NCBI GenBank assembly: GCA_028275885.1
Contig: JAPWTW010000002.1
Coordinates: 53,256-85,255 of the forward strand
Length of the DNA: 32,000 nucleotides
Direction of reading: 5' to 3'
DNA from: Candidatus Nanopusillus sp.
Lineage (GTDB): Archaea > Nanobdellota > Nanobdellia > Nanobdellales > Nanobdellaceae
Shown: positions 2,618 through 31,951 of the stretch, in pieces
How positions within the stretch are numbered: position 1 is the stretch's first letter
How the letters are laid out: each line of letters begins with the position of its first letter
Made by a program: the position numbers and the translations under genes
The notes under the pieces: model-generated
Seen by the model: only the letters and a program-made list of their open reading frames with translations
Databases searched by the model: none
What the model was told of the DNA's origin: nothing

Positions 2618-3004
2618 ATGTATAGGGTAATATCTTTTTTACAAAGGTTAAGAGAGAAAAAGGGTTCTATTATAATTGTAGAAGGTAAGAGAGATAAAGA
2701 AGTATTAAAAGAATTTGGATTTAATAATGTATATACAATATATGAATTAAGAAAGAATGATAATATATCCTTAAATTATAGAGAGGCAATTATATTAACA
2801 GATAATGATAATAAAGGGAAAATTTTATATAAATATGTAAGAAATTTATTAGAATCTGATGGAATAATTGTAAATGATATTGAAAGGAAAAAATTCTTTA
2901 AATATTTTAGGGTAAAGAGTGTCGAAGATTTAAGAAAGCATATTGAGGAAATAAAATTCTATATTAATTATTTTGAGAATCCTGAGAAGATTTTATACTT
3001 TTAA
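2618..3004 (+). CDS. small Toprim-domain protein (COG1658 / RNase M5-like)
   Basis: 128 aa. IIIVEGKRDKEVLKEFGF provides the conserved Glu and AIILTDNDNKGK provides DxD, giving the Toprim signature. The size fits the stand-alone archaeal Toprim proteins. Confidence 0.75.
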   Translation: MYRVISFLQRLREKKGSIIIVEGKRDKEVLKEFGFNNVYTIYELRKNDNISLNYREAIILTDNDNKGKILYKYVRNLLESDGIIVNDIERKKFFKYFRVKSVEDLRKHIEEIKFYINYFENPEKILYF

Positions 3005-4355
3005 TTTTTTTAATTGGATATGATAAAGGGTTTTTAATTAATGAACAAATATTATCTGGGGTACATACTCCAATATCTTTATAATATATTTCATTATTGC
3101 AATTTGGTGTTAAATATTTTTTATTATTTTTATATAATTTTTTATGCCATTCTAATTGATATTCTATATATCTATCCTTTAATGGATCTTGCAAATTTTC
3201 ATTCCACTCTTTTATATATCTTTCAATTTTATCCCAATTCCATCCAATATTTGCAAAGAAATTTATTAATATAAATAAAGATCTTTTTCTTCCATCATCC
3301 ATTTCTTTATTATTCAATATATTTTTTATACATGGAGGGAATAAATCTTCATTTATTTCTATTTTTCTTTTCTTTATTTCTTCTATATCTTTTTTTGCCT
3401 CTTCAATCCATTCTTTATTTTTATAATTTTCTGCTAATTGGCTAAACTTTATTACCTCAAATTCATTTTTTATTTTCCATAGTAATGAATCATTAATTAA
3501 TTTTCTTAATTCTTTAGATTCTTTTCTTTCTAAATCTTCGGTTAAATATGGTATACCTTCATATGAATAATTATTTATATTAGAATCTTCAGGATTTAAT
3601 TTTTCTATATAATTTTCTTTTATTGGTATAGATAAATTTCCTGTTTTTTCATTTATTGAATATAGACATCTAATCAAATGTCTTGATGATATTAATATTG
3701 TATCTATTTCAATTATATCATATGGATTTAATTTTTCTATATCATTTACTCCATATTCTTTCAATTCACCTTCACTAAATTTTAATAATATTATTTTCTT
3801 TAATTTCTCTTCTATTTCCTTTGATATATATAATGCTAATATCCTTGCAAGATCTGGAAATAATTTCCTTGTTTCTTCTTCTACAAGATTATCCTTTTTG
3901 TATATATTTATTGTTTCTGGAAATATTTCCCATGGGATTGCTATATGGAATCCTTTTCCTCCAGAATATTTTATATAAATTGGTTTAATATTTTTTTCTT
4001 TTAAATAATCAAAAATAATTCTTGCAGCAACTTTTGATAAATCTAAAGATTTTGCATCTATATCTATTATAAAATCCCATCCCAATCTATATTCATTTAA
4101 ATCTTTTTTTGAAACTTTCTCACTCAAAATATTTAAATCAATCCATCTTTCAATTGATATATGAAATGAAATAGCACCCTTTTTAATATAATTTATTATA
4201 TCATCTTTTGTTTCTATTTTTGATGGTCTATGTCCAAAATTATTATTTGATAATAAATATCCAACTTCCCTATTTTGTGAAATTTTTACCATATCTTCTA
4301 AAATTTCTTTATTATTTTGATAGAATTTAATTAAATTATTTACCATTATACTCAT
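2964..4355 (-). CDS. pri: archaeo-eukaryotic DNA primase: PriS catalytic domain fused to a PriL-CTD-like Fe-S domain
   Basis: 463 aa. PriS motifs are FIIDIDAKS (DxD), YSGGKGFHIAIPW (SGxxGxH) and IDTILISSRHLIRCLYSINEKTG. The C-terminal 130 aa carry FPPCIKNIL...GRKRSLFILINFFANIGW...TPNCNN...GVCTPDNICSLIKNPLSYP, the PPC/4-Cys pattern of the PriL C-terminal domain. Confidence 0.85.
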   Translation of the reverse strand: MSIMVNNLIKFYQNNKEILEDMVKISQNREVGYLLSNNNFGHRPSKIETKDDIINYIKKGAISFHISIERWIDLNILSEKVSKKDLNEYRLGWDFIIDIDAKSLDLSKVAARIIFDYLKEKNIKPIYIKYSGGKGFHIAIPWEIFPETINIYKKDNLVEEETRKLFPDLARILALYISKEIEEKLKKIILLKFSEGELKEYGVNDIEKLNPYDIIEIDTILISSRHLIRCLYSINEKTGNLSIPIKENYIEKLNPEDSNINNYSYEGIPYLTEDLERKESKELRKLINDSLLWKIKNEFEVIKFSQLAENYKNKEWIEEAKKDIEEIKKRKIEINEDLFPPCIKNILNNKEMDDGRKRSLFILINFFANIGWNWDKIERYIKEWNENLQDPLKDRYIEYQLEWHKKLYKNNKKYLTPNCNNEIYYKDIGVCTPDNICSLIKNPLSYPIKKIKSIKSSQDSQNN

Positions 4356-10191: not shown

Positions 10192-10508
10192 TTAAATATA
10201 ATCAATATATATGGATCAAAATAATTTTGGCCTGCATATAAATATTCAAATATTGGTTCATAATTTTGTATATATGTTGAATTTACTTGTTTTCCAAAAT
10301 AGCATATTGTAATATTGCTGTTTGTTAGATTTATTATTTCATAGATATATAGATTATTGTTACATGAAGTATTTAAGTAAATTAAATTATTTGGATCAAA
10401 AGTATAAATATTATAATTGTTAGATTTACTATAATAAGTATATAAAAAGAAAAATGTTAATAATATTATTGAAAATGCCAATTCTATTAGAATTATCCAA
10501 CTTCTCAT
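10188..10508 (-). CDS. prepilin-like small surface protein
   Basis: 106 aa. The N-terminus is MRSWIILIELAFSIILLTFFFLY, followed by an N/Y-rich domain (NTS, NLT, NIT, NST). ATGA overlaps on both sides. Confidence 0.6.
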   Translation of the reverse strand: MRSWIILIELAFSIILLTFFFLYTYYSKSNNYNIYTFDPNNLIYLNTSCNNNLYIYEIINLTNSNITICYFGKQVNSTYIQNYEPIFEYLYAGQNYFDPYILIIFK

Positions 10509-12718
10509 TTTATATATATTGTTAATTGATCTTTATATAATGTATTTACCATTGTATTATTTAAGATATATACATTAAAGTTTTCTGAATATATATAATT
10601 ATTTAAGATATTTCCTTGATATATTGTTCCATTAAATATTGTTATATTCAAATTACTAAAATAAAAATATGCATTTTGATAATTTTTTGATAAATTAATT
10701 AAATTATTTAAATTTATTGCATTTACTGTTTTAATATAATTTATTTCAATATATGGAATTTGGGTAGAAAATGCTAAATACAATGCTGTTTGTTTATCTA
10801 AATTTGGATTCGAATATAAATAGAAATAATAATCTAGATAATTATAATTATTATTCAATGTTGTATTTAAGAAATAAAGGTCATTATAGTTATCATATTG
10901 GGAGGCATAGGAAATATTTATTATAGAATTATAATTTGTATATAATATAGAATTTAAATACTTTGAGCAAAGAAAATTTTCAAAATATATTCTTAATATT
11001 ATACCATTTTCATATTCATAATAAAAATATCCATTATTTAAATTATTTATATCGAATATTTTATTATAAATATTAGTTGAGTTTAAAACAAAACCATAAC
11101 TATGTTGAGAAGTATTCCAAAATATCATATTATTTGAATTATAGTATTTTTGTGTACTAAATATATACCAATAAGTATTAGAAAATATTATATCCTTTAT
11201 TGATAGATTTGTAGAATTATATAAATATAATAAAGCTAATGAATCATTATAAACATAAGAAGTTAAATTATAAGGCTCATATTCAGAAGTATAAAATGAA
11301 AATCCAATTATTACATATGAAAGGCATTCATTTAGATAAGTCATTGGAATGGAGTAATATGTATTACCACGGATATTTATTAGATAAGAAAAATATGATA
11401 AATTATTATTATATATTGCAAAGTTATTGATGGAATTAGTTAATAAAATGCTTCCACTACCTAAATCATTATATTGAGAAAAATCATAAGTTATATTTGG
11501 ACCTATGATAAATTTATAATTATTAGTAAAATTTGGTTGATAAATTATTTTTATATTTGGTATTACATTATATGGAATTAAATTTATATAATATGCAGTA
11601 ATATTTCGACCGGATATTTGCAATTTAGCGTTGTTGTCATCATTATGACAATAATAAATATATAAAGAATTCGGATTTCCAGAAGATGGTAAATTTATAT
11701 TACAATTATCTCCTAATTTTATATAAGTATTATTAGATGACATTAAATTATTTTGAATATTAAATAGTATTAAATAGTTACCTTTAGGAATGTTATTATT
11801 GTAAGTAATTATAAAATTATTATATTGTATACATGAGCCTAAAAGGTATTGAGAACAAGAATAAATATTATCTCCAGGATTCATATATGAAATATTTATA
11901 GGAGTATTATTTGTCCAATATTGGCTAAACTGTTGATAATTTTGATAACTAAAATTATCATATACTGGAAATATTCTTTTTCCATCAATTGAATAACTAT
12001 TTGTCTCATTTATTGGAGAAATATTTAATATTATATAACCATATGGAGATATATTTAAACTAACCCAAATTCCATAAGAATTATTATTAAAACTATTGCA
12101 ATTTAAATTATTGTTTAAATAACAAAAATAATAATTATTTCCCTTCAAATCTTTTATAGATAGATTATAACCATTCTGTAGCCAATAAAAAATATCAGTA
12201 GAAGTTATAAATATGGGATAATTAGTTAAATTTTGACTTGACGGATTTGAAACATTTATTAAAATATATTGAGGTTGATTATTGCTTATATTAAAATTTA
12301 GAAAATTTGCATAAAAAAATATTCCAACATTTGGATCTAAATATGTATTATTTGTATTATTTAATACTCCAGAATAATTTGTTAAAAAAGATATATTTAA
12401 TGGATAATAGATTGGAAATGATGTACAAAAATCATTATATGCATTTTTATCAATTAAATCATCATATATTGAAGAATTTGGTAAACATTGATAATACATA
12501 GATAATGGTATTGAAACATTTAATGACAATAAATAATATTCACTTTCAATTGAATTTAATATATTATTTATATAGATATTATAATAATTTATTTGATCAT
12601 AATTATTAATATTATTTATTATATATTCTCTATACATTGTCAAATAGAATGTTAAAAATGAAATAAAAATTACTATTGCAATTATACCTTCTATTTCTTT
12701 TACTATCCCTCTAACCAT
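10505..12718 (-). CDS. large secreted/surface protein, Asn/Tyr/Ile-rich, with about 34 N-x-S/T sequons
   Basis: A 737-aa uninterrupted ORF in about 15% GC DNA. The N-terminus is MVRGIVKEIEGIIAIVIFISFLTFYL (signal anchor or class III-like). The rest is almost free of K/R/E/D and is dominated by N, Y, I, S, L. My manual count gives about 34 sequons. The start overlaps the ATPase gene by 16 nt. Confidence 0.65.
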   Translation of the reverse strand: MVRGIVKEIEGIIAIVIFISFLTFYLTMYREYIINNINNYDQINYYNIYINNILNSIESEYYLLSLNVSIPLSMYYQCLPNSSIYDDLIDKNAYNDFCTSFPIYYPLNISFLTNYSGVLNNTNNTYLDPNVGIFFYANFLNFNISNNQPQYILINVSNPSSQNLTNYPIFITSTDIFYWLQNGYNLSIKDLKGNNYYFCYLNNNLNCNSFNNNSYGIWVSLNISPYGYIILNISPINETNSYSIDGKRIFPVYDNFSYQNYQQFSQYWTNNTPINISYMNPGDNIYSCSQYLLGSCIQYNNFIITYNNNIPKGNYLILFNIQNNLMSSNNTYIKLGDNCNINLPSSGNPNSLYIYYCHNDDNNAKLQISGRNITAYYINLIPYNVIPNIKIIYQPNFTNNYKFIIGPNITYDFSQYNDLGSGSILLTNSINNFAIYNNNLSYFSYLINIRGNTYYSIPMTYLNECLSYVIIGFSFYTSEYEPYNLTSYVYNDSLALLYLYNSTNLSIKDIIFSNTYWYIFSTQKYYNSNNMIFWNTSQHSYGFVLNSTNIYNKIFDINNLNNGYFYYEYENGIILRIYFENFLCSKYLNSILYTNYNSIINISYASQYDNYNDLYFLNTTLNNNYNYLDYYFYLYSNPNLDKQTALYLAFSTQIPYIEINYIKTVNAINLNNLINLSKNYQNAYFYFSNLNITIFNGTIYQGNILNNYIYSENFNVYILNNTMVNTLYKDQLTIYIK

Positions 12719-14001
12719 AATCTCTTTCTAATTAAAGTTGGATCTGCACCTCCATGCCAAGAAACCCTTGGTTTTATTTGAACGGGATATATTTTTTCAG
12801 ATTTATCATCTAAAATTAAAGCAGCACCTTTTCTCTTTGGTAAATTTTCATTCATGTATATATCAATCTCCTGTGCAGTAAAATTCTTCATTATTTCATT
12901 TAAAGATTTTAAATCTCTCTCTGCAGTTACTCTATGTGATATAACTATATCGCTTTGAGTAATTACATCTGTATGCATTTTACTAGGTTGTTGCGTTGCT
13001 AATACCAATGTTATACCTGGTTGTCTTCCTTCTCTTATTATTTGTATTAAGGGTTCTGTTGCTGGTGTAACTGAATCATTTGGAATTGCTTCATGAGCTT
13101 CATCAATTGCAATCCATATTAATGGAAACTCTCTTGTACCTAATTCTTTTGAAATATATATTTCTTCTAATTCTTCTACTTTTCTATATATTAATCTTTG
13201 GTAAAATATTTTCTTAGATACTAATCCAATTACTAGATTTTTTACTGACCATCCACCAGTTATTGTAGTATATAATGATATATCTAATATATTTATATAA
13301 CCTGGTTTTGTTAAATTTCTTATATTTTCAGCTTTTTCAGAAAATATCCCCCAGCTATCCGCATTTTCGAAATATGTAGTTATAGCATTTTTAATATTAC
13401 TATCTATATCTAATTTTTCTGTATAACTTATTATATCCTGTATAGAATATCCATTATTATTTTCTTTCATCCTTTTTATAATTTTTTGTATATATAATGC
13501 AATATTTGATGTTGGATCCAAATTAAATGTTAAAACCCATTCAATTCCCGATAGATCTGAAGGATTTAATTGAAAAACATTATCTATAGGAACATTTATT
13601 TTTCTATATTCTTCTAACAAACCTTTAGGAACCAATATTCTGCAATTTTTTATTGATTTTGGCTTTAAACCCCATTTTTCTAATAATTCAGCATCTCTAT
13701 AATTCGGAAACTTCATTGTCCAAAATATCCCTGCTGTATCAAATATTAATCCAGAGAAATTATTTAATAGATCTTTTTCAAGATCTGATAAGCTTTCAAA
13801 TATTGAAGCCAATGTATAACTTTTTCCTTGTCCTCTTTTTCCTGCAATTAATATTAAATGTGGGAGATTTATATCTAAATAAACTGTATTTGCTAAAGAT
13901 AAAGCGTTTTCCATTTTTATATATTCTTTACCTATGAAAATTGAACCTTTTAATCCATATTTTTCTAAATCATCTAAAGATCTTCCTATAATAATATCCA
14001 T
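12703..14001 (-). CDS. FtsK/HerA-superfamily P-loop ATPase (COG0433/DUF87-like), with no predicted TM segment
   Basis: 432 aa. Walker A is LILIAGKRGQGKSYT and Walker B is LIWIAIDEAHEAI. LVLATQQPSKMHTDVITQSDIVISHRV matches the ATQRPS-type motif of FtsK/HerA pumps. The C-terminus is KGAALILDD...VQIKPRVSWHGG. Confidence 0.75.
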   Translation of the reverse strand: MDIIIGRSLDDLEKYGLKGSIFIGKEYIKMENALSLANTVYLDINLPHLILIAGKRGQGKSYTLASIFESLSDLEKDLLNNFSGLIFDTAGIFWTMKFPNYRDAELLEKWGLKPKSIKNCRILVPKGLLEEYRKINVPIDNVFQLNPSDLSGIEWVLTFNLDPTSNIALYIQKIIKRMKENNNGYSIQDIISYTEKLDIDSNIKNAITTYFENADSWGIFSEKAENIRNLTKPGYINILDISLYTTITGGWSVKNLVIGLVSKKIFYQRLIYRKVEELEEIYISKELGTREFPLIWIAIDEAHEAIPNDSVTPATEPLIQIIREGRQPGITLVLATQQPSKMHTDVITQSDIVISHRVTAERDLKSLNEIMKNFTAQEIDIYMNENLPKRKGAALILDDKSEKIYPVQIKPRVSWHGGADPTLIRKRLWLEG

Positions 14002-27982: not shown

Positions 27983-28867
27983 ATGGACAATAATTATAAT
28001 ACTTTGCTTATAACTGAAAAAGGTTTAGAAAATATTACAATTAAAGAGATAGAAAAAATATTAAATAGAAATATTGATTATAATATGATTGAAAAGAAAA
28101 ACAAAATTTTAATTTATGTAAATTTAGATTTCGAAGAAAGATTGAATTTATTATTTAATTCTAGAACAATAGATAATATATTATATAAGAAAAAAGACAA
28201 ATATGGGTATTTTCTATTAAAAAATCTATATGAAAGAGGTTATCAATTGAAAAAAATTGAAAAAATAAAATCAACATTAGTAAACAAAATTATATATTAT
28301 TCTGATATAAGGGAAAATGAAGAAATATTAAATATAATGGATGATGGTTCTTTTTCTATAGAGCAGGGTATATATATAAAGAATATATCACCAATATTCT
28401 GGAGGAGAAAAGAAATCTTCAAATATATGAATTATCTTGAAAAATACATGAATATAAGGAAAAAAGTTAATATAAAAATATATTGTGTTAATAAAGATAA
28501 AAATAAATTATTATTAATAGAAAGAAATTCTGAAAATGCTTTAGTAAATGATATAATATTTTTTAGAAGGTTGGATATAGAATGGATTGATTTAAAATTT
28601 AAAGAAGGATCAATTGATAAAATATTTACCTTTAGAATAAAGAAAAATTTGGAATTAAATATAAAGGATAAATATATTTTCTATCATTCAAATAAATTAT
28701 TAAAAGATAATGGAAAATTATATCTTTTATTATATAGTTATGATTATAAAAAAATCTTAGATAATATAATAAATTATATTAAAAAGTATTCTTTAGTATA
28801 TACTGATTCATTCTATCTATATAATTATAATAAAAGATTACTTTTAATTGTATTTGAAAAAATTTAA
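27983..28867 (+). CDS. divergent Trm14/RlmL-like (COG0116-type) methyltransferase-fold protein with degenerate SAM and catalytic motifs
   Basis: I prefer the ATG at 27983, since the track start at 27905 overlaps the membrane gene. LLITEKGLENITIKEIEKIL...LFNSRTIDNIL resembles the N-terminal domain of these enzymes. ERGYQ...STLVNKIIYYSD...ILNIMDDGSFSIEQ sits where RGYR...LDPMCGSGT is expected. There is no NPPY-type motif. This is a weak call. Confidence 0.3.
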   Translation: MDNNYNTLLITEKGLENITIKEIEKILNRNIDYNMIEKKNKILIYVNLDFEERLNLLFNSRTIDNILYKKKDKYGYFLLKNLYERGYQLKKIEKIKSTLVNKIIYYSDIRENEEILNIMDDGSFSIEQGIYIKNISPIFWRRKEIFKYMNYLEKYMNIRKKVNIKIYCVNKDKNKLLLIERNSENALVNDIIFFRRLDIEWIDLKFKEGSIDKIFTFRIKKNLELNIKDKYIFYHSNKLLKDNGKLYLLLYSYDYKKILDNIINYIKKYSLVYTDSFYLYNYNKRLLLIVFEKI

Positions 28868-28880
28868 AAATGATTTACCT

Positions 28881-29066
28881 ATGAATTTTATTATGGATAT
28901 AACTGAATTAGAAAAAACAAATGTATTGAAAAATCTAATAGTAAGCGATACAGTAGTAAAATTTGTATGTCCAAATTGTGGTCAGGGAATAATAATAAGG
29001 AGCAATAAAGAAAAGAAGATGGGTCTAGAATGGAAATGTCCAGTTTGTGGTTATACTGGACCATAA
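28881..29066 (+). CDS. Zn-ribbon protein (COG2888-like, commonly linked to aEF-1beta)
   Basis: CPNCGQGIIIRS...x...WKCPVCGYTGP. It sits immediately upstream of, and overlaps, the EF-1beta gene, a conserved archaeal pairing. The start could be 28848, 28881 or 28893. Confidence 0.55.
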   Translation: MNFIMDITELEKTNVLKNLIVSDTVVKFVCPNCGQGIIIRSNKEKKMGLEWKCPVCGYTGP

Positions 29067-29067
29067 A

Positions 29068-29346
29068 ATGGGAAGATATGTAGTTATAACATTAAAAATA
29101 TCTCCAACTGATGTTGATGTAGATTTAGAAAAAATAAATGAAAAGGTAAAAGATATAATAAAAAATTTTGGTGGTCAATATTTGTCCCACGAAATACAAC
29201 CAATAGCATTTGGATTAAATTCCTTAAATGTTAAATTTTTATATCCAGATCAGGAATTTAGAGAAGAAGAATTATTAAATCAAATAAATAGTATAGAAGG
29301 TGTAAGTAGTTCTGAAGTTATTTCTGTATCTCTTGCTCAGTTATAA
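29068..29346 (+). CDS. ef1b: translation elongation factor aEF-1 beta
   Basis: MGRYVVITLKISPTDVDVDLEKI...EIQPIAFGLNSLNVKFLYPDQE...IEGVSSSEVISVS is collinear with archaeal aEF-1beta (about 90 aa). Confidence 0.9.
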   Translation: MGRYVVITLKISPTDVDVDLEKINEKVKDIIKNFGGQYLSHEIQPIAFGLNSLNVKFLYPDQEFREEELLNQINSIEGVSSSEVISVSLAQL

Positions 29347-31250
29347 TGTATATTTTTAAAGAATTTTCAGAAATAAATATAAAAGAATTAAAAAAAGAAA
29401 TAGAAAATGAAAGACAATTAATTAAGGATATAAAAGCTGGAAAAATATATAGGGAACAAAAAGAATTAATGAAGGTTGTTTTATTTATTGTAGAGTCACC
29501 AAATAAAGTAAAAACAATTTCCTCATTTTTTGGAAGACCATCAATAAGAAATGTTGGAGGATTAAAGGTTTATGAAGTTTCTTTAGGAAATATTTATTTA
29601 CTAATTACAGCATCAAAAGGTCATATTTTAGAATTAACAACAGATAATATTGGTCTATTTGGTATAGAAAGAAAAGATGGTGTATTTTATCCGTATTATA
29701 ATACAATTAAAAAATGTTTATCTTGTGGAAATCAATTTACTGAATATAAAGATGGAAAATGTCCATATTGTGGTTCTACAAATGTTGAAGATTCAATAAA
29801 TAGGATAAGAGCTCTGCAGGAATTGGCTATGGAAGTTGACCAGATTATAATTGGAACAGATCCGGATACAGAAGGTGAGATGATTGCATATTCTTTATAT
29901 TTAGTATTATATCCATTTAATAGAAATATTAAAAGAGCGGAATTTCATGAAGTTACAAAAACAGCAATATTAAATGCTTTAGAAAATTTAAGAGATATTG
30001 ATTTAAATTTAGTAAAATCCCAAGTTGTTAGAAGAATTGAAGATAGGTGGTTAGGATTTAGTCTATCTCAAATTGTTCAAAAATATTTTAATAAAAATTG
30101 GTTATCTGCTGGGAGAGTGCAAACTCCAGTTCTTGGTTGGATAATTAATAGATTTAATGAAAGGAATAAATCTAAATCATATATTTTAGAATTAAAATTG
30201 GAGAATGATAGAAAATTATATATAGATACTGAAATAAAGAATAGAAGAGAGATAAATAAAATTATAAAGAATATAAAAGATAAAGAAATAAATATAGTTG
30301 ATTATAAAGAAGAAAAAGAAGAAATACAACCTTTACCTCCATATATTACTAGTACAATTTTACAAGATGCAAATAATATATTAAAAATTGGTGTAGATAG
30401 AATAATGCAAATATTACAAGAATTGTTTGAATCTGCATTAATAACTTATCATAGAACAGATTCCACAAGAATATCTCCTTTAGGTATATCAATTGCAAAA
30501 GATTATATAAGTCAAAAATTTGGAGAAAATTATTTTGTAGCAAGATCATGGGGAGAAGGGGGGGCACATGAAGCAATTAGACCTACAAGACCTTTAGATG
30601 TAGATATGTTAAGAAATTCTATAGAAAATGGAGAAATTGAAGTATATATTAATATGACAAAATATCATTATATAATTTATGATTTAATATTTACTAGGTT
30701 TATTCAATCGCAAATGAAACCTGTTTCTGTAATTAAATATATAGAAAAGATAAAAATACCAGAAATAAATAAGGAAATTGAATTAAGTGGGGTAAAAGAT
30801 GTGATAGATCATGGATGGGATTTAATATTTCCATTTAGAATTAATATTATGAAAATACAACCAATACAGAATGGAATAAAAATTGTTGAAGCTATAGGTA
30901 AAAAAGTACCAAAGGTTAGATTGTATTCTCAGGCAGATATCATTAATTTAATGAAAGAAAGAAAGATAGGTAGGCCGTCAACATATGCAATAATAGTAAA
31001 GAAAGTAATGGAGAGGGGCTATGTAATAAATAAAAGCAATAATCTAATTCCAACAAAATTGGGAATAGATGTATATAATTTTTTAGAAAAAAATTTTGGA
31101 GACTTTGTTTCTGAGAAAAGAACAAGAGATTTAGAAGAAATTATGGATAAAATTTCTGAAAATAAGGAAGATTATAGAAAAGTGCTTGAAAGTATATATG
31201 ATGAGACAAATCTGATAATTGAAAAAGGAAAAAATATACAAAAAGAATAA
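29346..31250 (+). CDS. rgy: reverse gyrase, topoisomerase (type IA) half only (split reverse gyrase subunit)
   Basis: 634 aa. VVLFIVESPNKVKTISSFFGRPS...ITASKGHILEL is the start of the reverse-gyrase Toprim region. An inserted Zn ribbon is present (CLSCGNQF...CPYCGS). GTDPDTEGE, the active-site region LITYHRTDSTRIS and GRPSTYA follow. No helicase-like domain lies upstream; the preceding gene is ef1b, with a TAATG overlap. Confidence 0.8.
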   Translation: MYIFKEFSEINIKELKKEIENERQLIKDIKAGKIYREQKELMKVVLFIVESPNKVKTISSFFGRPSIRNVGGLKVYEVSLGNIYLLITASKGHILELTTDNIGLFGIERKDGVFYPYYNTIKKCLSCGNQFTEYKDGKCPYCGSTNVEDSINRIRALQELAMEVDQIIIGTDPDTEGEMIAYSLYLVLYPFNRNIKRAEFHEVTKTAILNALENLRDIDLNLVKSQVVRRIEDRWLGFSLSQIVQKYFNKNWLSAGRVQTPVLGWIINRFNERNKSKSYILELKLENDRKLYIDTEIKNRREINKIIKNIKDKEINIVDYKEEKEEIQPLPPYITSTILQDANNILKIGVDRIMQILQELFESALITYHRTDSTRISPLGISIAKDYISQKFGENYFVARSWGEGGAHEAIRPTRPLDVDMLRNSIENGEIEVYINMTKYHYIIYDLIFTRFIQSQMKPVSVIKYIEKIKIPEINKEIELSGVKDVIDHGWDLIFPFRINIMKIQPIQNGIKIVEAIGKKVPKVRLYSQADIINLMKERKIGRPSTYAIIVKKVMERGYVINKSNNLIPTKLGIDVYNFLEKNFGDFVSEKRTRDLEEIMDKISENKEDYRKVLESIYDETNLIIEKGKNIQKE

Positions 31251-31281: not shown

Positions 31282-31509
31282 ATGGCTGTTAGGGGGATAA
31301 AAGTTGGAGATGTATATGAAGTAGAGATAAAGAGTTTGACACAAAGGGGAGATGGATTTGCTAGGATAAAAGGGGTTGCGACTTTTGTAAAGAATGTAAA
31401 TGTTGGTTGGAAAGGTAATGTAAAAGTTATTAAAGTTGGTCCTACTTATGTAATTGCTGAACCTACTACAACTGGAGAATCTAAAGACTCAGACCATAGT
31501 AATTTTTAA
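31282..31509 (+). CDS. stand-alone TRAM-domain protein
   Basis: 75 aa. VGDVYEVEIKSLTQRGDGFARIKGVATFVKNVNVGWKGNVKVIKVGPTYVIAE is the TRAM/OB pattern of the small archaeal COG3269 proteins. Confidence 0.8.
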   Translation: MAVRGIKVGDVYEVEIKSLTQRGDGFARIKGVATFVKNVNVGWKGNVKVIKVGPTYVIAEPTTTGESKDSDHSNF

Positions 31510-31547: not shown

Positions 31548-31565
31548 ATGATGATATCATGATGA
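31548..31565 (+). promoter_or_regulatory. tandem C-box-like ATGATGA-TATC-ATGATGA element covering the L7Ae start codon (possible K-loop / L7Ae autoregulatory site)
   Basis: Read directly: ATGATGA at 31548-31554, TATC, then ATGATGA at 31559-31565. The second box contains the two candidate start codons of rpl7ae. Confidence 0.35.
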
Positions 31566-31951
31566 CAGCTCCATATGTAAAATGGCCTGAGGATGTATTG
31601 AATACATTTATACAAAATTATGAAGCAAAAGTATATGAATTATTTGAAAGAGCAAAGCAAAGTGGGAAAATTAGAAAGGGGGTAAATGAAACTACAAAGG
31701 CAATAGATAGAGGACAGGCAAAACTGGTAGCAATTGCGTTAGATGTAGATCCTCCAGAAATAGTAATGCATATACCAGCATTATGCGAAGAAAAAGGGGT
31801 AACTTATGTATATGTTTCTTCTAAACAAAAATTGGGACAATCTTGTGGTATAAATACACAGGCATCAACGGCTGCAATAATAGAACCTGGTGAAGGAAAG
31901 CAAATTATGGATGAAATAGTAAAGGCACTTAATACGTTGCTAAAGAAATAA
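31559..31951 (+). CDS. rpl7ae: 50S ribosomal protein L7Ae (eL8), K-turn binding protein
   Basis: 130 aa. KIRKGVNETTKAIDRGQAKLVAIALDVDPPEIVMHIPALCEEKGVTYVYVSSKQKLG is near-consensus archaeal L7Ae. Confidence 0.93.
   Translation: MMTAPYVKWPEDVLNTFIQNYEAKVYELFERAKQSGKIRKGVNETTKAIDRGQAKLVAIALDVDPPEIVMHIPALCEEKGVTYVYVSSKQKLGQSCGINTQASTAAIIEPGEGKQIMDEIVKALNTLLKK

Follow-up and report, generated by a model that had tools for sequence, protein, structure and literature searches.

Nanoarchaeum equitans reportedly encodes its reverse gyrase in two pieces, a helicase subunit (NEQ434) and a topoisomerase subunit (NEQ318), an arrangement said to have been described by Waters in 2003 and by Capp in 2010. 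In the single-chain enzymes of A. fulgidus (1GKU) and T. maritima (4DDT), the same domains occur in the same order as in the two halves considered here, but on one polypeptide. Reviews state that the N. equitans subunits associate into an active heterodimer. In Podar et al. 2013 (PMC3655853, Table 1), N. equitans and Nst1 share a reverse gyrase split at the "same site"; for TopA, a split is listed for N. equitans and none for Nst1; the shared splits are held in that study to predate the divergence of marine and terrestrial Nanoarchaeota. Split nanoarchaeal sequences were also handled in the survey of Catchpole and Forterre 2019. Methanopyrus kandleri likewise has a naturally two-subunit reverse gyrase, but according to reviews its break falls inside the topoisomerase domain, which is whole in the locus described here. 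With an ancestral split already in print (Podar 2013), our locus is an ordinary member of a published oddity, and its topoisomerase half brings no new kind of enzyme and no new mechanism.

The window, by which we mean the whole 32,000-nucleotide stretch of Candidatus Nanopusillus DNA that was analysed, has a GC content of 24%, and the topoisomerase-half gene one of 25%. On the plus strand, a methyltransferase-like ORF, a zinc-finger protein, aEF-1beta, the topoisomerase half, a TRAM-domain protein and ribosomal protein L7Ae follow one another head to tail. The features of the locus are:

28848..29066, plus strand: HVO_2753-type small zinc-finger protein (PF07754, 46.2 bits)
29068..29346, plus strand: aEF-1beta gene (ef1b), the upstream partner (TIGR00489, 67.7 bits against a cut-off of 61.2; PF00736, EF1_GNE)
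29344..29348, plus strand: TAATG, holding the ef1b stop and the topoisomerase-half start (sequence)
29346..31250, plus strand: predicted reverse gyrase topoisomerase subunit of 634 aa, counterpart of NEQ318 (TIGR01054, 1GKU, tree)
29346..29477, plus strand: N-terminal 44 residues, corresponding to the helicase-to-Toprim joining stretch of unsplit enzymes (G025 residues 581 onward, 1GKU 473–510)
29478..29951, plus strand: Toprim domain (PF01751; DPDTEGE at window 29859–29879)
29715..29777, plus strand: zinc ribbon inside Toprim, residues 124–144 (motif scan, 1GKU alignment)
29997..31187, plus strand: type IA topoisomerase core, Topoisom_bac (PF01131)
30447..30464, plus strand: active-site YHRTDS (motif scan, 1GKU alignment)
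31282..31509, plus strand: TRAM-domain protein, downstream (PF01938; position kept in family relatives)
31559..31951, plus strand: ribosomal protein L7Ae (PF01248, 101 bits)

The topoisomerase-half ORF starts with ATG and contains 0 internal stops. By Pfam it comprises a Toprim domain at residues 45–202 (73.9 bits) and a Topoisom_bac domain at residues 218–614 (291.7 bits), and the same scan found neither DEAD nor Helicase_C in the ORF. The Toprim signature begins at residue 48, which leaves 47 residues ahead of it, close to the 45 or so estimated in an earlier, sequence-only reading of this DNA. The Toprim glutamate is residue 50 and the acidic motif DPDTEGE occupies residues 172–178; both align to 1GKU, as do the CxxC pairs of the zinc ribbon, at 124–127 and 139–142, which fall on the cysteines of the A. 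fulgidus enzyme. Catalytic Tyr 368 opens the YHRTDS motif (residues 368–373), aligned to an identical motif in 1GKU. The sequence-only reading had described a stand-alone topoisomerase ORF with a zinc ribbon, an acidic motif, YHRTDS and a type IA core but no helicase-like domain, and ORF, Pfam matches and motif positions agree with it on every count.

A Toprim domain joined to a type IA core with a catalytic tyrosine is also the make-up of archaeal TopA and Topo III, but the window protein is set apart from both. The NCBIfam reverse gyrase equivalog TIGR01054, whose curated cut-off is 471.7 bits, matched it at 782.1 bits (E = 8e-235), residues 4–622 covering positions 562–1170 of the 1172 in the model. 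Scores for topA_bact (314.8 bits), topA_arch (174.4 bits) and topB (106 bits) lay below the respective cut-offs of 456.4, 458 and 516. Among solved structures, A. fulgidus reverse gyrase (1GKU) was matched over its residues 473–1051 at 513 bits (E = 1e-152), TopA at about 165–181 bits and Topo III at 78–91 bits. We also built a maximum-likelihood tree by a quick search from 12 split-type topoisomerase halves, the topoisomerase parts of 22 single-chain enzymes and 4 archaeal TopA proteins, this genome's own included; the unsplit G025 enzyme entered it with 260 residues, and nothing is drawn from where that enzyme fell. The window protein sits inside the reverse gyrase clade, separated from archaeal TopA by a long branch with an SH-aLRT of 100, so that the placement with ordinary type IA enzymes named beforehand as grounds for giving up the assignment was not seen. 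The genome's own archaeal TopA is intact (G000:C11:24813-26546, L036; topA_arch 566.6 bits against a cut-off of 458), so the topoisomerase half must be something other than the ordinary type IA enzyme of this cell. Among named proteins, the nearest is a "reverse gyrase" of Nanobdella aerobiophila, which shares 74% identity; JGI data contain a protein of the same name at 96% identity. Together these results support the prediction that the window gene is the topoisomerase half of a split reverse gyrase. TopA or Topo III identity is ruled out by the sub-cut-off scores, the tree and the separate TopA gene, and a split of the M. kandleri type by the completeness of the topoisomerase module in one ORF.

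A helicase-like half, which the earlier reading proposed to look for elsewhere in the genome, is present on another contig. A search of the assembly (531 kb, 13 contigs, 85% complete) with TIGR01054 returned a second piece of reverse gyrase at G000:C8:52435-54183 on the minus strand, the topoisomerase half being on contig C7. Helicase and topoisomerase thus come as two ORFs on contigs C8 and C7 and not as one polypeptide. The second ORF is a clean one of 590 aa (L002 1489-3261) that matches model positions 3–555 at 468.1 bits, barely under the full-length cut-off, as half a protein would be expected to score. Its domains are zf_Rg (the N-terminal reverse gyrase zinc finger), DEAD and Helicase_C, and its motifs include a Walker A at residues 115–121, DDVD at 217–220 and motif VI at 550–557. 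The genes around it are unrelated, with TmcA downstream and GINS and L44e on the opposite strand. A separate full-length reverse gyrase, which would have counted against a split, was not found by the model search in the 85%-complete assembly, and the complete genomes of congeners hold two halves only. Randau 2012 reports that C/D box sRNAs flank NEQ434; an Rfam search at E ≤ 1, in which suitable models may be lacking, gave none at either half-gene locus.

For the position of the break, we used as reference the unsplit 1240-aa reverse gyrase of G025, a more distant genome of the same class. Helicase-half residues 6–589 of 590 correspond to G025 residues 15–576, and residue 4 of the topoisomerase half to G025 residue 581. 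The 4 reference residues in between equal the 1 and 3 unaligned terminal residues of the two halves, and with all junction residues accounted for, the cut is clean: nothing has been lost and no docking sequence gained. The comparison with the N. equitans split that the sequence-only reading had proposed was made through G020, a single-contig genome of about 0.5 Mb and about 31% GC from the same order, with TopA in two pieces; these traits fit N. equitans, whose TopA is NEQ045/324. The G020 halves cover reference residues 16–580 and then start at 583, which puts the break at the same place give or take a few residues, and the N-termini of the topoisomerase halves of the two genomes are plainly homologous in the junction alignment. 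Compared with the G020 proteins, our helicase half lacks about 8 C-terminal residues and our topoisomerase half has about 3 residues more.

The likeness to N. equitans extends to two distant genes, the same break site within a few residues and intact catalytic motifs, and L7Ae is a downstream neighbour of the topoisomerase half here and in the N. equitans-like G020. The topoisomerase half is 48% and the helicase half 42% identical to its G020 counterpart. TopA is one intact gene here and two pieces in G020 (39903-41090 and 288896-289369, G020:C1). Local GC is 24% here as against 31% in G020; Nst1 is reportedly also very AT-rich. The difference in TopA follows the pattern given by Podar 2013. 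Nst1 ('Nanobsidianus stetteri', Nst337/Nst402) resembles our organism, by its entry in the published Table 1, as a nanoarchaeon of terrestrial hot springs with a same-site split and an unsplit TopA, but is a different lineage.

As judged from sequence, the two genes very probably encode a heterodimeric reverse gyrase in which the partner of the window protein comes from the other contig, the split was inherited from one event, and the topoisomerase half is expressed as part of the ef1b string. The topoisomerase subunit would bind the helicase-like subunit non-covalently, through the interface that the two modules share in single-chain enzymes, because no extra sequence occurs at the break. The helicase-like subunit would drive local unwinding with ATP, and the type IA core would raise the linking number by passing a strand through a break that Tyr 368 makes. 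By analogy with the N. equitans pair, the paired halves would introduce positive supercoils in an ATP-dependent manner; we infer both assembly and supercoiling by carrying them over from that enzyme. Gene structure, family membership, the partner gene, the break point and its distribution, and the ef1b overlap are read directly from sequence. The split itself would go back to a single event in an ancestor of the order to which N. equitans, Nanopusillus/Nst1-type organisms and Nanobdella belong, and would have been inherited since. Expression of the topoisomerase half would take place in a tight string of zinc-finger protein, aEF-1beta, topoisomerase half, TRAM and L7Ae, with its translation probably starting by re-initiation at the ef1b stop.

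The sequence-only reading placed ef1b directly upstream with a TAATG overlap, which TIGR00489, EF1_GNE and the sequence confirm: the ef1b stop TAA (29344–29346) and the start ATG (29346–29348) share one base. The stop/start overlap with ef1b is kept in all 17 of the 17 family loci, across four genera; it reads ATGA in one genus and TAATG in the others. Three more genera of the family have ef1b, the topoisomerase half and L7Ae in this order, and among family relatives any frame of 70 aa or more seen between topoisomerase half and L7Ae is a TRAM gene. In G020, L7Ae is the sole retained neighbour of the topoisomerase half (L007, frame 3590-4018), and no ef1b-sized frame precedes the half on the same strand; the immediate proximity of ef1b is a difference between the two genomes. 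Such conservation of the overlap suggests that the two genes are probably coupled in translation, with re-initiation at the ef1b stop. Among hot-spring metatranscriptome contigs, derived from relatives about 90–95% identical, some from organisms at about 93% identity span the ef1b/topoisomerase junction; these are contigs and not reads, may include DNA, and carry no meaning in their uncovered bins, so they are compatible with co-transcription and are no proof of a single transcript. This stretch of DNA occurs almost entire in one hot-spring metagenome, which is probably where it came from, and partially in others. The family-wide overlap with ef1b is a small addition to the known split, as are the inteins in the topoisomerase halves of some relatives. 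Two further observations concern this stretch: the zinc-finger gene (28848-29066, plus strand) overlaps the methyltransferase-like ORF with its 5′ end, in an order shared with a family relative (L021), and the C-terminal tail of TRAM (window 31464–31483) bears in-frame insertions of 18 nt and 27 nt in metatranscriptome contigs of relatives, so that its length varies.

This setting raises the question of whether the topoisomerase half has a life of its own. It might work also, or mainly, alone, as an ATP-independent relaxing enzyme, in an amount set apart from that of its partner by the ef1b operon. The two halves do lie apart in the genome, each among other neighbours, the topoisomerase half belongs to a strongly expressed string of translation-factor and ribosomal-protein genes, and the title of Capp et al. 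2010 calls the activities of the two N. equitans subunits 'separate and combined'. We nevertheless regard independent action as unlikely, given that a separate intact archaeal TopA is available for relaxation, that nearly every relative searched has kept both halves together, and that the N-terminal stretch by which unsplit enzymes join the helicase module is still present here and conserved in all split relatives. A related proposal, which strikes us as rather doubtful, is that the ef1b overlap ties synthesis of the topoisomerase half to the translation operon, so that the subunits would be made in unequal amounts and a surplus of topoisomerase half would have its own role; if this were true, the surplus might serve relaxation, or RNA topology beside TRAM and L7Ae.

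Returning to the heterodimer with one inherited split, we surveyed related genomes for the break. Of 18 other family members searched, 17 gave matches, broken at model position ~556/562; in one of these (G012), the topoisomerase half alone was found. The break is also present in one genome from each of two further families of the order, G020 and G019. In G019 the topoisomerase contig begins within the gene, and the helicase half ends at the common break site. Three closed genomes of the same genus have their halves 114–141 kb apart. By contrast with these split forms, G025 has a single unsplit frame of 1249 aa, and in G027 a fragment spans model positions 339–730 with no stop, so that two sister lineages of the class are unsplit at the site. 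Reverse gyrase was not found, at the threshold used, in nine other class-level genomes.

These data also bear on whether the split is that of N. equitans or, as the sequence-only reading allowed, an independent one in an AT-rich lineage. A convergent cut would have had to fall by coincidence at the N. equitans domain boundary, although the boundary between helicase and topoisomerase modules is the likeliest point at which a split would be tolerated. The ends also differ somewhat, with the G020 helicase half ~8 residues longer and its topoisomerase half ~3 shorter, and split forms grouped together in our tree with an SH-aLRT of just 71. However, in all three families searched within the order the break falls at one position, give or take a few residues, the split forms do form one group in the best tree with no well-supported branch that speaks against a single origin or forces more than one, L7Ae lies downstream of the topoisomerase half in our genome as in G020, and Podar 2013 infers shared ancestry from common split sites in several genes. 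Convergence thus seems highly improbable to us, and the comparisons favour a single ancestral split, the same as in N. equitans, with an independent origin disfavoured. Of the two alternatives offered by the sequence-only reading, the break point favours the 'same ancient split', as already published for Nst1.

We give next to no credence to an artefact, be it a frameshift, an assembly break or a decaying pseudogene: the assembly does comprise 13 contigs at 85% completeness, but both halves are clean ORFs with conserved starts and stops of their own, they lie on different contigs among unrelated flanking genes, the layout recurs in more than 17 genomes, three of them closed, and the catalytic motifs are all intact.

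Under a single inherited split, the split would be a fixed trait of a thermophilic nanoarchaeal order and not a quirk of N. equitans. Its presence in three families of the order and absence from two sister lineages would make it a marker for the clade and for a thermophilic habit. The earlier description of the topoisomerase half as a marker of hyperthermophily holds for thermophily but is overstated for strict hyperthermophily: reverse gyrase excludes mesophily and is found in thermophiles as well as hyperthermophiles, some of its holders having a growth optimum of 55–60 °C, and Nanobdella aerobiophila, the closest cultured relative, was grown at 65 °C.

Several relatives depart from the plain two-piece layout. 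In another family of the order, the topoisomerase half lies in a 1295-aa frame (L028:3-3887, G019:C27) with an intein, recognised by two stretches of Intein_splicing and a LAGLIDADG endonuclease inside the Topoisom_bac core; PF14890 is likewise present in the database proteins P0020 and P0022. G016 has its topoisomerase half spread over two contigs, with model positions 556–918 on one (L025, C64) and 917–1170 on the other (C60:2927-3700), and the first frame continues at the contig end into sequence unlike topoisomerase. A further intein, combined with a break in the assembly, probably accounts for the two pieces; a second split is possible. Database proteins P0025, P0030, P0052, P0085 and P0097, of the reverse gyrase topoisomerase type and 647–730 aa long, come from other lineages or phyla, some on contigs of more than 100 kb; they start in or just past helicase motif VI, 20–60 residues upstream of the nanoarchaeal break, and are probably partial or miscalled genes, though they may include other splits nearby.

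Elsewhere in the window, a 463-aa ORF on the minus strand (2964–4355) matches both PF01896 and PF04104, the small and large primase subunits, and is therefore read as a fused PriS-PriL primase. Such a fusion is the opposite trend to the gene splits; a PriS-PriL fusion is reportedly known in N. equitans as well. Also on the minus strand, a 737-aa ORF (10505–12718) without a Pfam match at a threshold of E ≤ 1e-5 shares its border with the end of a gene for a HerA-like (DUF87) ATPase at 12703–14001, the two overlapping.
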